IMG/VR virus record: IMGVR_UViG_3300000285_000003
From: a virus
Direction: 5' to 3' (one strand)
Length of the DNA: 64,000 nt
The stretch's first letter is position 1; the number at the start of each line of letters is the position of its first letter. The notes under the pieces are model-generated. The model saw nothing but the letters and a program-made list of their open reading frames with translations. It made no database searches and was not told where the DNA came from. The position numbers and the translations under genes were made by a program. Of the stretch, positions 54,568 through 60,154 are shown one piece after another.

Positions 54568-57236
54568 GACCCAAATCCTCTACTAGATACTTTTAGTGTT
54601 CTATCGGCATCCATCCATAAAACTCCTTCAATTTTTGGATCGCTTGTAGGCAGACCATCTAATATATATAATATATCATCCGATGACGCATTATCAATTC
54701 TCTTTAAATGAAGCCCTTTATTATTATAACTATTTGTTAATGTTACAAAATCATTACCTGCAACATCGTGGCCGCTAAGATCTATATATGGTCTACCGTT
54801 ACCATCATACAATCTTATACTTTGTTCAGTAATACTAGAACAATCAAAACCCTTGTTATCATTTTTGTTACTATAGACAGAAATTTCTCTATCAAGTGGA
54901 TCGATAATTATTTTTCCAAAGCTTTTCATAATTAATCTAATTGCCGAAGAAAGTGAATCTGGATCTATAGTATATTCAAAATTAGCTAATTCTATCCTTT
55001 CGTCGCTAGATGGGAGATATGTTCCATCTGTATATGAGTCATCTGTAATACTAACTGGTCCGATTATTTTAAAAGAACACTACTGCGGATTGAGTTTAAT
55101 GCTTTTACCCTGTTGTGTATTTTGCATAACAATTGACCCATTTGAATCTATTGTGGTATACGCCGTTGTTAAGTCTCCAGTTGTCTGCATTTTTCCTGCC
55201 CATATTCGTACGTCACCCTTATTCGTAACCTTCCCATTAAGATCCGACTTACTATCAATCGCCTTACTAGAAGTCATACCCGCTACGATTGCATCACCGT
55301 CCATTATAACAACTTCTTCTGATGACAACTCTTTAACGTAAGCCTAATTTGCTATTATCTTATCAGCTACAAAATTTTCTGTAACTGCGAACTTCTGAAA
55401 ATATGTAGCAACATCAGGAGTCATTACCCAATGGTCGGATTCTCCGGTATCTGCATTTACGCAAACATAATACATGTTTTCATAAAGTACGACATCTTGA
55501 TAGAATATACCGTTTTCAGCATCTCTCTTTCCATCATAGTACTTTTTACCACTAGCCCATGCACCAACAATTCTTAAAGGTGAACCTTTGAACGTTTGTC
55601 CAATAGATCCGTCTCCAGGATCACCTTTATCTCCAGATGACGATACAGGAATAGTCATAGATGTAAGATATGCTCCATTTTTATTCTCTGCATATATAGT
55701 AATAGTGCTAGACTTAGACTATACAGTTGCATTTACTGAAGCGTCCCAATGATCTGTGTTATACTGTAAAGTTGTTCTATCGTTCGAGTTTATCTACATA
55801 TATAGATTATACAGACTTGCATCAGTACTATTTACAGCGCTTTCGTTTTTATACAAATTAACATTACAGCTCATCTATAAGTTGTAATTCTAATCTGCAG
55901 GAACGTATGATAACGATATGTTTGAAAGCTGTAATGAATAAGTTACTCCATTAAGTCCATTTATGCCAGACCTAACGATTGGAACATATTCGTTTAACAT
56001 TATTGCTCCATTTGTTGCTTTAAACAACATTCCATTATCACCTTCTGTTTGAATCTAATCAGATGATATTGTGGTCCATGTATCTCCTCCATCAACACTA
56101 TATGAGAACGACCAACCAGAACCATTTGATGGTGTAATATTTGTAATCTACGAGCCATTGCTTTTTACAACATATACACTAATAAGATTTGGGTACATTG
56201 TACCATCTTGATAATTAATAGTACTCGTAGAAGTTTTAATATCGTATGATACAGCGTTTTCTCCTGCAGTTCCAGTTAAACATATTGGATTTGTGTATTC
56301 TCCATACTATCCATTACCATTTATGAATACTTGTGTCATCCATATGTAGTATCCAGCTTCCTAATTTGGAGCATCATCAACCCACCCAGAACCGTCTTCA
56401 GGTGGTCTATTTGCACTAGGTTTACTTGGCGCTACAGAATTACTTGGGTGTTTTTTGAAATAAGATTTGCTATATCCAAATTTAGTATAGTCTATACTTG
56501 AACTAGCACCACTAATAGGTATTTTTATGTCGCGCCCACTTTCAATAGAGTACGCCTTATCGTTTATTATCAATTTTGATAATGTGTTCTTTTTAATATA
56601 ATTTAAAAGCTACTGCTATACATAATCGGTATCTACTCCACCACCAGATCCGCTTTCAGATAAAGCAACTCTAAACTAACCACCATTCTTCTATGTAAGA
56701 ATAAGCTCATTGTGTTCCAATGTAAAGCTCTCTATAGGATAATCTTTCCCTATAGTAGAGTCTTCGATTATCTTCTATATCTAAGCTATAGTATAATAGT
56801 TAGTGGGATCAAATTTTATATAGTCAGCCTTGTTTAAATACGTAGAATCGGCATTCTCTTTTGTAACATACTAATCAAAGTCAATATTACTAATAGCGTC
56901 ATCAACATATTTCTTTTTAGCATACTCTTCAATATTTAAATCAGTAATAGCACCCGCTATCTGCCTAGACACTTCTATCAATATTTCTTTCTTTATAGAG
57001 TTATCTCCGTCTCCAGCTATTTCGTTTAGCTTATTTTGAAGATCTAGTAAAGCAGAATTGCTAGCCTTTCCATTCCATTCATCTCTTTCTTCCTAAGATA
57101 TATGTGAGACAGAATCATTTTCATGGCAGCACAATCTAGAATATATTGACGAATAACACTTGTCTATTTTAAAATCTAATTCTCCGATTGGATTTTTGCA
57201 ACAAGGCTTTTTTGGTTCTACGCAAAAATTAATCAT
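54564..57236 (-). CDS. Tail-fibre-type protein, 890 aa
   Basis: ATG at 57234-57236 (upstream TAA at 57255-57257) and TGA at 54564-54566. The hand-scanned frame is open with many TAG. It joins track ORFs 56361.., 55344.., 55080.. and 54564... It has a Cys-rich N-terminus, a coiled-coil-like stretch, then Ser/Thr/Asn/Gly-rich beta-type sequence. Confidence 0.75.
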
Positions 57237-57510
57237 ATTAATTCGTTTAAATTGTTAACAATTATTGTACTGTGGTGTCATCGAAGACCACGTCTAAAAC
57301 GCCACAGTTAAAGATTATTTGAATTTATCCCAATCTATATTTTCCTTCTTTCCTACAACGTCTGCCACCCATCTACAAAACTGAATTCCTGTATATCCAT
57401 CTAGGGGTGATAAAAGTCCTACCCTGGTACGCATTTGAAAAGATGCGTGGCAGAATCTGTTGTGCTAGGCGGGGCAGTGAACCCCGTCATGCTTTCATTA
57501 AGACCTAGCT
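57237..57510 (-). ncRNA. 274-nt structured non-coding leader/intergenic region (candidate regulatory RNA)
   Basis: There is no open frame in any reading, even with TAG as sense. The region looks locally GC-richer than flanking coding sequence. It contains a tRNA top-half-like minihelix (57464-57509), a long-range stem domain (57355-57463), alternative hairpins (57269-57308) and a 14-bp palindrome (57250-57263). Confidence 0.4.
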
Positions 57511-58707
57511 TTATTCAAGATTTAAAGTTTGTTTAATTAGACCACTTGTACTAAGTGCATCTATAAGATTTATTACAATAGTTCTTAGTTTTGTGATATC
57601 AGCTGTTTCTATATCTGTAACATCAACACTATTAACTGTGATTTTATCCTATTTTTTCGACAGGCCTACTCTCAAACTGGAAATGCTATCATTCACAGTA
57701 TTAAGACTATTCGCAAGTGCATACTTAGCATCAGCATCTTGCTATGTTATAAAATTAGAGTCATTAGTAAGCTGGCTAACATTTGTAGGAACAGTAGGGA
57801 GCTCCGTCTTTAAAGCAAAATCAGATATTGGTTTAAATGTGCCATCTGAAGTAGCTAAACAATTGTTATACTTGTCAGAAGTTATTCCATTAATAGAATA
57901 TGTTGTTCGAATGGCTTGCCCTTCCTATATATTCTAAAAATCAACAAAATGTAACTAACTATAATTAAGATAAAAAGCCCCATCCTAATTACCACCAGTA
58001 ATATTTGTGCTCTAGATTGATACACCTTCGTTATTATTAGTTACATAAAGATTTTTACCAATACTATATTGCGAATTAGTACTTGAATCATAAGGAATAT
58101 AGTTGCCAGCGTCCTATTTAGCACTAATAGCAGCATTCAGCGTATTAATCTGCTAATTAAGCGCTGTTGTAAGAACGTAGTTACTAAGTGCGGTAGCGTC
58201 AGCCTTTTCTGTAATAGCCTGATTTAATGCTGTATGCAAGTCATCGTTACCAGCAAGTTTGTCAGCAATCTCTTTAAGTGTATCAAGATCTTCTGGGGCA
58301 GCAGCAATCACATCGGCAATAGCTTTTCTAAATGATCCTTCTGTGTTTGAATCACCATCAACTATTGCAAGCTTATCTGATATCTCTTTCTCTTTACCTT
58401 CTGCTCTAGTCTGCTCTGCCTTAATCTTAGCATTTAAGTCTTCATCACTCTTTGTACGAGCGCTTGTTTCAGCTTCAAGTAAATCCTTTGTAACATAATT
58501 ACCATTTTCAATGCTATTGTCTATAGCATATTTTACAGACTGATCAATAAGTTTATTTGTAGAGTTTGCATCCAGTATGTCTCCATGCATAAATTCACCA
58601 CCTTCAAGATCAACCAATATTTCTGGATTTCTGACCTATTTACCAGGTGCTGTTACGAGTGCATTCTTTACTGGAACTCTATATAAAAAATCTTTTTCCT
58701 AAATCAT
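57511..58707 (-). CDS. Tail-fibre/coiled-coil structural protein, 398 aa
   Basis: ATG at 58705-58707 (upstream TAA at 58765-58767) and TAA at 57511-57513. The hand-scanned frame is open with about 12 TAG. It contains track ORF 58153..58617, which has repeated helical heptad-like segments typical of fibre shafts. Confidence 0.75.
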
Positions 58708-58777: not shown

Positions 58778-59335
58778 TTAGGCCTATCCTTCGCTTACCT
58801 CAGCACCTTCTTGTGCCGCCGCTGACTCTGGTACGGACTCAACCTGTTCCTTAAGCTGTGACTGAGTTCCCGTAGCTGCGCTAGATTCGTTTTCGTGTCC
58901 TGTGCCAGTAGAACCAAATCCGCCATCGCCTCTCTCTGTTGACGAAAGCTCAGAAACCTCTGTGATTGTATACTCTGGTATAGGAACGATGACTAACTGA
59001 CAGAAGCGTTCGCCCTGCTTGTAAACAGCAGGAATTGTATCTGTTGTAGCCTTCATGAATGCTACAATCTCGCCTCTATAATCACTGTCGATAACACCGA
59101 CATTATCAGTAAGCCATAATGACTTTTTCCAAATACTAGAGCGTGGTATAAGTAAACCAACATATCCGGCAGGAATTTCAACTGCCAATCCTGTATGGTA
59201 AACCAACATTAGCTGATTTGCTTCATTAAGAGCTGTTTCAATCTTAGTGCAAGTCAAATCAATTCCTGCAGCACCTTTTGTGCCACGAATAGGGAGGATA
59301 GCGTTATCCTCAAGTCTCTTAAATTTCAACTCCAT
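58778..59335 (-). CDS. dut: dUTP diphosphatase (dUTPase) with an acidic C-terminal extension, 185 aa
   Basis: The canonical trimeric dUTPase motifs are present: AGIDL, PRSS, GVIDSDYRGEI and RGDGGFGSTG. I chose the ATG at 59333-59335, because the track start at 59344 is a TTG. The TAG at 58784 is followed by GCC and then TAA (58778-58780). Confidence 0.9.
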
Positions 59336-59360
59336 AGTATTCAAATATTATTTTTTATTG

Positions 59361-59431
59361 TTACCCCACTAGGATTCGAACCCAGACTAAGAGTTTTAGA
59401 GACTCCTGTGCTGCCGTTACACCATAGGGCA
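59361..59431 (-). tRNA. Amber-suppressor tRNA, anticodon CTA (reads UAG); Gln-type identity plausible
   Basis: The 71-nt cloverleaf folds as follows. Acceptor stem TGCCCTA/TGGGGTA (U1:A72). D arm GTGT-AACGGCA-GCAC. Anticodon arm GGAGT-CTCTAAA-ACTCT, a 7-nt loop with T33 and anticodon C34 T35 A36. Variable loop TAGT. T arm CTGGG-TTCGAAT-CCTAG. Discriminator A. No CCA is encoded. Confidence 0.9.
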
Positions 59432-59437
59432 ATAAGC

Positions 59438-59474
59438 GCGTAACTTTTATCTGGAGTTACGCAGAACCAGTATT
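59438..59474 (-). repeat. Hairpin/pseudoknot motif, copy 1
   Basis: On the plus strand, GCGTAACT-TTTATCTGG-AGTTACGC forms an 8-bp stem with a 9-nt loop, then AGAA, then CCAGTATT. The loop CTGG is complementary to the downstream CCAG. Confidence 0.6.
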
Positions 59475-59610
59475 AGCGCCATTTGGATCCTGCAGCTCCG
59501 AGCGCCGCTAGGGCAGAAAGCTTTTGTTTCACCCGGATATCCCAGTTTATAGAGATTTCAGAAATGGCGACAACCTCTCAGCGATTATATTCGCCCGTCT
59601 TCTTTGACTC

Positions 59611-59643
59611 TTATAAGTTTTAGCTGGACTTATAACCAGTATT
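59611..59643 (-). repeat. Hairpin/pseudoknot motif, copy 2
   Basis: On the plus strand, TTATAAGT-TTTAGCTGG-ACTTATAA forms an 8-bp stem with a 9-nt loop, followed directly by CCAGTATT. The loop and flank match copy 1 except for one loop base. The stem sequence is entirely different but still fully paired. Confidence 0.6.
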
Positions 59644-59746
59644 GGGTCCCTGTGTCAGCTTACCATGGTAGCCTTTTGTTTATAGTGTACACACAGGGAT
59701 GCCACTCATATTATCAATCTAAATATTAAAAAAAATGAATATGTTG

Positions 59747-59820
59747 GAGTCTATGCAGGAGTCGAACCTGCTAACTATTCCCTTTGTATCGGGTCGTCTT
59801 TACCGTTTGACTAATAGACT
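59747..59820 (-). tRNA. tRNA-like gene with a non-canonical anticodon arm (pseudo-tRNA or unusual tRNA; anticodon undetermined)
   Basis: The acceptor stem (AGTCTAT/ATAGACT), U8, D arm (GTCA-AACGGTAA-AGAC) and T arm (GCAGG-TTCGACT-CCTGC) are all good. The anticodon region ACCCGATACAAAGGGAA only forms CCC/GGG with an 8-nt loop GATACAAA, and the region is one nt longer than standard. Confidence 0.5.
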
Positions 59821-59830
59821 CTAAAGGTGA

Positions 59831-60154
59831 TTACTTAGTACGAGTAATCCAATTCCATAAACGTTTATACCAAGGCTTCTTAATCTTCTCTTCGGCTCTG
59901 CGCGCCTTACATCTTAAGTATACGCAATCATCTTTTACTACAGCGCAACCGTTCTCTGGAAGAATCTCGTCGAGCAAAGCATCTGTAAGGATTGATATAA
60001 CTGTATAATAGTCGCAATCAGTCACTCTCATACCTGCCGAAATCTTCTTGCTAATGAAGTATGCTGTAACATCGTTTACATTAGCAACATCAAGCATAGA
60101 GATTACATACTTGGGTCTCTTTACCTTAACTGTCTTTTTAATAGCTTTCTTCAT
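59831..60154 (-). CDS. Hypothetical basic protein, 107 aa
   Basis: This is an intact ORF in the track, from ATG 60152-60154 to TAA 59831-59833, with no in-frame TAG. Confidence 0.75.
   Translation of the reverse strand: MKKAIKKTVKVKRPKYVISMLDVANVNDVTAYFISKKISAGMRVTDCDYYTVISILTDALLDEILPENGCAVVKDDCVYLRCKARRAEEKIKKPWYKRLWNWITRTK

Follow-up and report, generated by a model that had tools for sequence, protein, structure and literature searches.

Two tandem double-pseudoknot RNA modules in the tRNA operon of a crAss-like phage

In the virus record IMGVR_UViG_3300000285_000003, of which we analysed a stretch of 64,000 nucleotides (nt; hereafter the window), a spacer of 315 nt (59432-59746) separates a suppressor tRNA gene with the anticodon CUA from a tRNA-like gene, and both of these neighbours lie on the minus strand. 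Our analysis reveals that within this spacer lie two paralogous modules, arranged in tandem, of a structured RNA specific to phages. The RNA is read on the minus strand, has a modular make-up, shows selection on its fold and joins the downstream tRNA at a fixed junction. Each module, or unit, consists of two H-type pseudoknots, termed PK-A and PK-B, with A-rich third loops. The nearest database records are the crAss-like phages cr7_1 (95%) and cr124_1, both members of the genus Burzaovirus within the Suoliviridae.

An initial annotation, made from the plus-strand letters, had described two copies of an 8-bp stem with a 9-nt loop, each followed by CCAGTATT, and an additional 9-bp stem. All of these elements could be located base for base. 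The first copy comprises GCGTAACT (59438-59445), the loop TTTATCTGG (59446-59454), AGTTACGC (59455-59462), AGAA and CCAGTATT (59467-59474), and the second copy comprises TTATAAGT (59611-59618), the loop TTTAGCTGG (59619-59627), ACTTATAA (59628-59635) and CCAGTATT (59636-59643). The 9-bp stem is formed by TCCCTGTGT (59647-59655) and ACACAGGGA (59691-59699). While the elements are thus correct, the biologically relevant strand is the minus strand, and all of the approximately 60 copies of the family are found in gene sense. Read in this direction, the motif becomes AAUA-CUGG-UU(CU)-stem-CCAG-NUAAA-stem'-GCUUAU, directly followed by the tRNA. The duplicated hairpin is real, but it is not isolated: the two hairpins represent the 3' pseudoknots (PK-B) of two tandem modules that fill nearly the whole spacer, and the 9-bp stem is the second stem of PK-A in unit 1. 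Both 8-bp stems are present, although the one of the second copy is effectively reduced to 6 bp if the pseudoknot forms, because its first two bases must then act as loop 1. The pseudoknot between CTGG and CCAG proposed earlier is real, since the two strands covary among relatives (CUGG/CCAG, CAGG/CCUG, CAGC/GCUG, CUAG/CUAG and CAGU/ACUG).

The two units differ in type. The type I module (unit 1) follows the pattern AGUGGC - helix 5' strand - GUACACUAUAAAYAAAAGG - optional hairpin - helix 3' strand - YAAUA - pseudoknot, of which 17 distinct sequences were obtained among relatives; RNAalifold recovered its outer helix and the PK-B stem. Its second PK-A stem encloses the conserved A-rich loop AUAAACAAAAGG (59683-59672). 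The type II module (unit 2; 20 distinct sequences) consists of the PK-A/PK-B core of type I together with a 5' extension (GAGUCAAAGAAGAC plus a hairpin) and a three-way-junction insert in the A-rich loop 3 of PK-A. In both types a short 5' stem encloses the 5' strand of a long helix, and thus PK-A is an H-type pseudoknot as well. The A-rich third loops may line the minor groove of the short, G/C-rich first stems. As an alternative for type II, RNAalifold suggested a pairing of AGAA..CGG in the 5' extension (59595-59603) with CUGGUUCU (59463-59470), a segment that covers loop 1 and the 5' strand of PK-B. Such a pairing would compete with PK-B stem 1 and could represent a conformational switch; it shows compatible single changes only and no covariation.

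The evidence for selection on this fold stems from relatives, which were collected both via the upstream open reading frame (ORF) and via DNA patterns. In the window, the pattern CTGG-N8-16-CCAGNTAAA occurs twice against an expectation of 0.03. A covariance model of the motif, applied to all 64 kb, returned only these two copies (73.7 and 59.8 bits), with the next match at 12.9 bits (E=0.13). The second stem of PK-B is represented among relatives by at least six unrelated sequences of 6-9 bp. In a stems-only alignment of eight distinct variants, whose register we set from the structure, 98.6% of the PK-B cells were paired, compared to 71% in shuffles (0/500) and 21-44% in slid controls, and eight of the nine pairs carried compensatory changes on both sides. 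We employed a stems-only alignment because MAFFT placed the 5' end wrongly in some of the type I sequences, as it did the 3' half of PK-B in distant copies; the register of stem 1 is anchored by the invariant AAUAC and by adjacency. A test of cognate against non-cognate strands by their longest helix proved too noisy with G·U pairs allowed, and was replaced by composition-preserving shuffles. For PK-B stem 2 these yielded a combined p-value of 6e-8; for PK-A stem 2, the Fisher-combined value was 9e-6 over eight sequence-unrelated helices.

Covariation extends to other helices. Stem 1 of PK-A changes from AGUG/CACU to AGCG/CGCU (L020; L numbers denote related loci), with AGAGGUU/AAUCUCU as its equivalent in type II and GUCGG/CCGAC in the distant clade. 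The position of PK-A stem 2 is occupied in relatives by GUCCG/CGGGC, GUGGGAGG/UCUCCCAC, GGUCGUC/GGCGGCC or GCUGAU/AUUAGC, and by the compensatory CCAUG/CAUGG. For unit 2, this stem shows changes on both sides in four of eight pairs (GCUCACC/GGUGAGC in L012; shuffle p=0.005). Within the three-way junction, GCAGC/GCUGC is replaced by GUAGC/GCUAC in L041 and L050, and GGGYRRA/UCUGCCC carries one-sided changes restoring the pairing in L005, L006 and L027. Over the entire type II structure of 48 pairs, both pseudoknots included, 97.7% of cells are paired versus 33-45% in slid controls, and double changes occur at five pairs (0/500 shuffles). Many of the type II pairs are mostly G·U on the minus strand, e.g., in 16-18 of 19 sequences at four pairs. 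As the opposite strand would have A·C mismatches at these places, the fold is that of a minus-strand RNA.

Further observations concern conservation and specificity. The units are ~98% identical to cr7_1, as are the tRNAs, compared to 55% for the AT-rich spacer upstream. A covariance model of the close group detected distant copies on which it had not been trained (E 8e-4 to 3.5e-3). The pattern searches also returned 19 chance matches, 16 of them in bacterial genomes with a second stem of 0-2 bp and three in viral coding regions, whereas true copies have 5-9 bp. A coding function was considered for the two plus-strand ORFs of 46 and 41 amino acids and rejected, because indels of 1, 32 and 170 nt break them among close relatives. 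No terminator-like site was found on either strand between 59250 and 59950: the stems precede GCUUAU or GAGUCA and not the U tract that follows the G+C-rich hairpin of an intrinsic terminator. An assembly artefact is ruled out by the recurrence of the element in the GenBank genomes cr7_1 and cr124_1, in ~30 IMG/VR contigs and in one contig of a metagenome-assembled genome (MAG). The homologous spacers of relatives contain the motif in a structured, covarying form, which bears out the covariation that had been noted between the two copies of the window. With compensatory changes among relatives, and with coding, termination and misassembly set aside, we regard it as very probable that the spacer represents a selected RNA structure.

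The modules are tightly joined to the tRNA that follows. In ~24 of 30 related contigs, the last PK-B is succeeded by the six nucleotides GYUUAU and then by position +1 of the tRNA, and the distance from the CCAGNUAAA motif to the tRNA start is constant at 15 nt, for Met and Sup alike. The downstream tRNA is tRNA-Met(CAU) in many contigs and tRNA-Sup(CUA) in others, and in one locus (L023) PK-B abuts the tRNA with a linker of 0 nt. Just upstream of the modules there is a tRNA-shaped element as well, both in the clade of the window's phage and in the distant clade. Judging from the alternation of Met and Sup at the junction and from the tRNA-shaped element upstream, the RNA is tied to the phage tRNA operon and not to the suppressor in particular. 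The initial annotation had speculated on a link to the suppressor tRNA or to a recoding switch, and such a link is not specific: the same element stands at the same distance before tRNA-Met(CAU) in many relatives and is absent from some that bear a TAG suppressor (L019, L021). A role in tRNA expression or processing in general is possible.

Several observations weigh against our overall reading of the element, including the processing from a tRNA precursor proposed below. PK-B and the tRNA are separated by ~120 nt in four loci (L011, L015, L017 and L046), and in most loci of the distant clade PK-B is followed by a spacer and is not tRNA-adjacent; thus, the junction is frequent, but not obligatory. 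L019 and L021 carry tRNAs but no module, which indicates that the module is dispensable. The minimum free energy (MFE) of the whole region yields a z-score of about -1.0 on either strand. As the folding program does not model pseudoknots, this value is uninformative and lends no independent support. Finally, close relatives are mostly very similar, and much of the covariation derives from a handful of divergent lineages and from registers chosen by us.

Modules were found in ~30 IMG/VR contigs, in two GenBank genomes and, with variant sequences, in a more distant clade. A relative may carry one, two, three or no copies: L040 has three modules, L027, L032 and L041 have type II only, and L019 and L021 have none. 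In cr124_1 (L002 3190-3240 versus window 59474-59643), exactly one module is missing, namely the 170 nt between the AAUACUGGUU repeats, and this deletion is bounded by the 10-nt direct repeat AATACTGGTT. Copy number varies through recombination between the repeated 5' halves of PK-B. A scan of 185,579 bacterial and archaeal species genomes returned, besides the 16 chance matches, a single true match on a phage-like contig. An IMG/VR scan with the conserved 17-mer TACRCTATAAAYAAAAG gave mostly chance matches in AT-rich coding DNA and added no lineage. The RNA family appears to be restricted to crAss-like phages. The contig of the single true match (L118; JAJXAL010000002.1, 101 kb), placed in a Segatella copri MAG bin, looks like a complete crAss-like phage genome; its binning points weakly to a Segatella/Prevotella host. 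L006 (2930-3125) and also L038, L040, L046 and L050 carry a conserved non-coding block of ~200 nt (AATAGATTRCACCGATTGTGGAATCTCGACCAG...GGGGTAAGATA) located between the tRNA-like gene and the first module; it has no Rfam match and is absent from the window.

Table 1 Features of the spacer and its neighbours, listed in minus-strand order (5' to 3').
Feature	Position	Strand	Remarks
ORF, 107 amino acids (ORF107)	60154->59831	minus	upstream of tRNA-like gene
tRNA-like gene	59747..59820	minus	5' boundary of locus; Rfam tRNA 38.3 bits, E=1.9e-6
AT-rich variable spacer, tRNA-like gene to unit 1	59707..59746	minus	55% identity to cr7_1; 24-47 nt in relatives
Unit 1, type I module, 96 nt (AGUGGC..., PK-A, AAUA, PK-B)	59611..59706	minus	97.9% identity to cr7_1
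Unit 1 PK-A stem 1	59684..59706	minus	AGUG (59706-59703) with CACU (59687-59684); covaries in relatives
Unit 1 PK-A stem 2	59647..59699	minus	UCCCUGUGU (59699-59691) with ACACAGGGA (59655-59647); unrelated helices in relatives
Unit 1 PK-B	59611..59643	minus	covariance-model score 59.8 bits; AAUA (59643-59640); stem 1 CUGG (59639-59636) with CCAG (59627-59624); stem 2 (UU)AUAAGU (59635-59628) with ACUUAU(AA) (59618-59611); loop 3 CUAAA (59623-59619)
Unit 2, type II module, 173 nt	59438..59610	minus	97.7% of cells paired; 5 pairs double-changed
Unit 2 P0 hairpin	59580..59595	minus	GGCG (59595-59592) with CGCU (59583-59580); 100% paired; G·U to G-C in 3 sequences; 32-nt insert in some relatives
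Unit 2 PK-A stem 1	59551..59578	minus	AGAGGUU (59578-59572) with AAUCUCU (59557-59551); 99.2% paired; RNAalifold agrees
Unit 2 PK-A stem 2	59477..59569	minus	CGCCAUUU (59569-59562) with AAAUGGCG (59484-59477); 98% paired
Unit 2 three-way junction in PK-A loop 3	59487..59538	minus	helix changes in relatives; AUCC/GGAU (59538-59535/59490-59487), GGGUGAA/UCUGCCC (59534-59528/59517-59511), GCGGC/GCUGC (59508-59504/59496-59492)
Unit 2 PK-B	59437..59474	minus	covariance-model score 73.7 bits; AAUA (59474-59471); stem 1 CUGG (59470-59467) with CCAG (59454-59451); loop 1 UUC; stem 2 UGCGUAACU (59463-59455) with AGUUACGCG (59445-59437); loop 3 AUAAA (59450-59446)
Linker GCUUAU (consensus GYUUAU), PK-B to tRNA +1	59432..59437	minus	conserved across relatives
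Suppressor tRNA, anticodon CUA	59360..59431	minus	ARAGORN; Rfam tRNA 55.6 bits; directly 3' of element
dUTPase	59344->58784	minus	PHROG 135
Tail-protein gene, downstream of dUTPase	56590-58707	minus	many in-frame stop codons

The statement of the initial annotation that no known RNA family is recognisable was upheld by Rfam 15. The window gave tRNA matches only, the region 59200-59950 gave tRNAs and noise only at E<=10, and the spacer RNA of nine relatives gave no match. Neither ARAGORN nor the Rfam tRNA model placed a tRNA or transfer-messenger RNA (tmRNA) inside 59432-59746. A resemblance of CUGAGA to the thiamine pyrophosphate (TPP) riboswitch was dropped because no Rfam match was obtained. 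Likewise, theta ribozymes, which resemble that of hepatitis delta virus (HDV), pistol, twister and hatchet ribozymes, preQ1, TPP and other riboswitches, GOLLD, ROOL and tmRNA were set aside, as none gave an Rfam or ARAGORN match.

Some known RNAs nevertheless share single features with the modules. In the 3' untranslated region (UTR) of tobamoviruses, with its upstream pseudoknot domain, and in the pseudoknot array of tmRNA, consecutive H-type pseudoknots lie directly 5' of a tRNA-shaped domain. These belong to a eukaryotic viral mRNA or to tmRNA itself, whereas the neighbour here is a real, separately matured tRNA. The topology of PK-B resembles that of the preQ1-I riboswitch and other compact H-type pseudoknot aptamers: both have a short stem 1 of G/C, pairing between the tail and the 3' part of a loop, and a loop 3 rich in A. 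The aptamer, however, has a stem 2 of 3-4 bp compared to 6-9 bp here and resides in the 5' UTR of queuosine or transport genes and not at a tRNA, and its model (RF00522) gave no match at E<=10. GOLLD and ROOL are likewise phage-encoded, often near tRNA islands, pseudoknot-rich, supported by covariation and of no assigned function (PMC12286853), but they span 580-800+ nt and form homo-oligomeric cages, while the modules measure 96-212 nt, have another fold and lack an Rfam match.

The closest comparison is to theta ribozymes, pseudoknotted RNAs by which recoded Bacteroidota gut phages process tRNA 3' ends; of the tRNAs associated with them, one fifth are suppressors (PMC10879173). Like the modules, they are small, pseudoknotted and fused to a phage tRNA, often beside a suppressor tRNA, in gut Caudoviricetes that infect Bacteroidota (PMC10879173). 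Theta ribozymes sit at the tRNA 3' end and have a nested HDV fold with a catalytic C, whereas the modules sit at the tRNA 5' end and carry H-type pseudoknots side by side. Theta ribozymes place their G1 within +/-5 nt of a tRNA 3' end, but unit 1 starts 40 nt past the tRNA-like gene's 3' end. A closer inspection also shows that the nested fold of P1, P1.1, P2, P3/L3 and a catalytic C in J4/2 is not present. The helices of PK-A cross in a P1/P2-like manner, but only GUA occupies the position of P3/L3, and there is no HDV-type match in Rfam. The modules form a real family of structured RNAs which, judging from its absence from Rfam 15, appears to be undescribed; a large catalogue of anonymous candidate phage RNAs (PMC10690425) lay outside the comparison.

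How might such an RNA be made and used? The genomic context, with a tRNA-like gene upstream and a tRNA 6 nt downstream on the same strand, fits an RNA embedded in a tRNA precursor. We tentatively propose, at a likelihood somewhat short of even, that the structured RNA is excised from such a precursor, which would entail co-transcription, release by tRNA enzymes, stability and any function in trans. The whole stretch would be transcribed as a single tRNA precursor. RNase P, cutting at the 5' end of the downstream tRNA, would set the 3' end of the module, and its 5' end would arise when the upstream tRNA-like element is processed at its 3' end and the product is then trimmed. A compact RNA of ~280 nt would be released, whose terminal PK-B would leave a tail of 6 nt and shield the 3' end from 3'-5' exonucleases. 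The released RNA could then act in trans on a partner or, before its release, influence the maturation of the adjoining tRNA in cis. Such a route has analogies. The tRNA genes of phage T4 are clustered with those of stable small RNAs (species 1 and 2, RNAs C and D) that are co-transcribed with tRNAs and released by tRNA-processing enzymes, and in MALAT1-mascRNA a 3' end made by RNase P is protected by an A-rich triple helix. The likeness to both lies in the proposed release by tRNA enzymes, which for the modules is inferred, and no homology is expected.

Other explanations have to be weighed against excision from a precursor. The modules may instead act in cis as a leader through which the tRNA array, suppressor included, is regulated, with PK-B, 6 nt from the RNase P site, or the alternative pairing of its 5' strand gating the maturation of the tRNA 5' end or the stability of the precursor; this widens the idea of the initial annotation to the entire array. 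We consider it possible but doubtful, and equally doubtful that such a leader would set when the suppressor and initiator-like tRNAs become available. The constant parts of the element are indeed the tRNA-proximal PK-B (the GCGUAACU stem) and the GYUUAU linker, at a fixed distance to tRNA +1, while the upstream bodies vary (type I, type II or both). The competing pairing with CUGGUUCU found by RNAalifold could serve as a switch, and late genes of this genome use TAG recoding. The alternative pairing, however, lacks covariation, tRNA-Met follows the element no less often than tRNA-Sup does, and the element is missing from some relatives that bear a suppressor. Moreover, pseudoknot stems of 8-9 bp appear constitutive rather than gated by a ligand or factor, and Rfam reveals no riboswitch similarity. 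A broader variant, in which the modules are a phage RNA class that times tRNA-array maturation, and hence the supply of TAG suppressor for late genes, by RNase P gating or self-cleavage, strikes us as unlikely. Self-cleavage itself, producing the tRNA 5' end or the RNA's own end as a 5' counterpart of theta ribozymes, is highly improbable. Its appeal lies in the pseudoknots, in the invariant unpaired AAUA, UAUAAAY and NUAAA, in the fixed short distance to tRNA +1, and in theta ribozymes as an example of small pseudoknotted ribozymes in tRNA end formation in Bacteroidota gut phages (PMC10879173). No Rfam ribozyme model (HDV, twister, pistol, hatchet or hammerhead) matched at E<=10, the P3/L3/P1.1 core that defines HDV is absent, theta ribozymes act at tRNA 3' ends and not at 5' ends, and host RNase P would generate the tRNA 5' end anyway. 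In addition, to our knowledge, no small ribozyme class cleaves downstream of its entire fold.

Two further possibilities place the function outside the tRNA precursor. As in phage HK022, nascent put-type pseudoknots could bind RNA polymerase in cis and cause antitermination into the dUTPase and tail genes, which are late and TAG-recoded; we consider this quite unlikely. The putL and putR sites are tandem copies with conserved loops and differing stems, features that the modules share, and the likeness to HK022 put RNA is one of position and tandem arrangement. The element lies at the boundary of upstream small genes and downstream dUTPase/tail genes on one strand, and no terminator was found in the region. 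Antitermination would, however, leave the tight tRNA junction unexplained, and no promoter can be placed consistently upstream: no sigma-70-like promoter was detected on the gene strand of the region, and the Bacteroidota -7 box (TAnnTTTG) has no consistent position upstream of the modules in relatives. The slimmest chance of all is given to an element acting as DNA, i.e., a site of recombination, replication or packaging, or else a mobile element that bears a hairpin and whose mobility would account for presence and absence. The copy number of 0 to 3, the absence in cr124_1 of exactly 170 nt bounded by the repeat AATACTGGTT, and the clustering of homing endonuclease genes and introns at this locus in relatives would suit such an element. 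Against it stand the strand-specific G·U pairs, the lack of terminal inverted repeats and of copies elsewhere in the window, and the fact that the repeat belongs to a longer structured motif with compensatory changes and is not a target-site duplication; homologous recombination between PK-B 5' halves fully explains the polymorphism. With two adjacent copies, a covarying repeat and a strand-specific fold, the element also does not conform to mobile DNA hairpins such as miniature inverted-repeat transposable elements (MITE), repetitive extragenic palindromes (REP) or IS200/IS605 ends.

On the minus strand, the genes of the locus follow each other in the order ORF107, tRNA-like gene, spacer, tRNA-Sup, dUTPase and tail gene. 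A PHROG search with ORF107 gave no match. The tRNA-like gene, for which ARAGORN makes no call, has normal acceptor, D and T arms, an anticodon stem of 3 bp and a loop of 8 nt (GAUACAAA), and a G-1:C73 pair is possible. It is 98.6% identical to cr7_1 and kept in all relatives, and is almost invariant across relatives in which the adjoining ORF is only 35% identical. The 3' end of tRNA-Sup lies 15 nt from the start codon of the dUTPase gene, and no element follows tRNA-Sup. In the tail gene, which opens with ATG ATT TAG, the one in-frame stop codon that was compared with the DNA is TAG, consistent with read-through by the adjacent CUA tRNA.

The tRNA region of relatives shows further peculiarities. 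Long ORF-containing inserts split tRNAs in the anticodon loop (L014 3325-3870, L017 3150-3700 and L038; also L126-L128 and L130), directly after CAT in tRNA-Met and after CTCT in tRNA-Sup, which suggests intron-bearing phage tRNAs. Distant relatives have group I introns (RF00028, 65-72 bits) within or close to the dUTPase gene (L104 1674-1915, L107 437-684), and ORFs of GIY-YIG and HNH-like endonucleases occur between tRNA and dUTPase in L020, L022 and L006. In eight loci (L011, L013, L015, L017, L018, L027, L040 and L041), ARAGORN places between tRNA-Met and tRNA-Sup tRNAs whose anticodon it gives as 2 or 4 bases (aa, ca, ac, taaa, tgaa); these add to the tRNAs of this phage group whose anticodon loops are non-standard. 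In L101, L102 and L105, 200-300 nt upstream of tRNA-Sup, the stop codon of the ORF107 homologue is directly followed by another pseudoknot (CAGCC...GGCUG), whose second stem covaries as GCAAGG, ACGUGGG or ACGAGGG. In the same three loci, an armless tRNA-like minihelix (acceptor and T arm only) adjoins tRNA-Sup.

CrAss-like phages rank among the most abundant human gut viruses, and in many of them a suppressor tRNA reassigns TAG. Our analysis reveals a conserved double-pseudoknot RNA, supported by covariation, within the tRNA operon of one crAss-like lineage; this RNA is absent from Rfam and from bacterial genomes. It adds a small (~100-200 nt), experimentally tractable member to the structured RNAs that phages keep beside their tRNAs, among them GOLLD, ROOL and the stable RNAs of T4. 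Should the RNA affect tRNA maturation, it would bear on the timing of stop-codon recoding, and if it gates maturation or self-cleaves, crAss-like phages would have a timer of their genetic-code switch that works at the RNA level. Action in trans would make this RNA a new phage effector.

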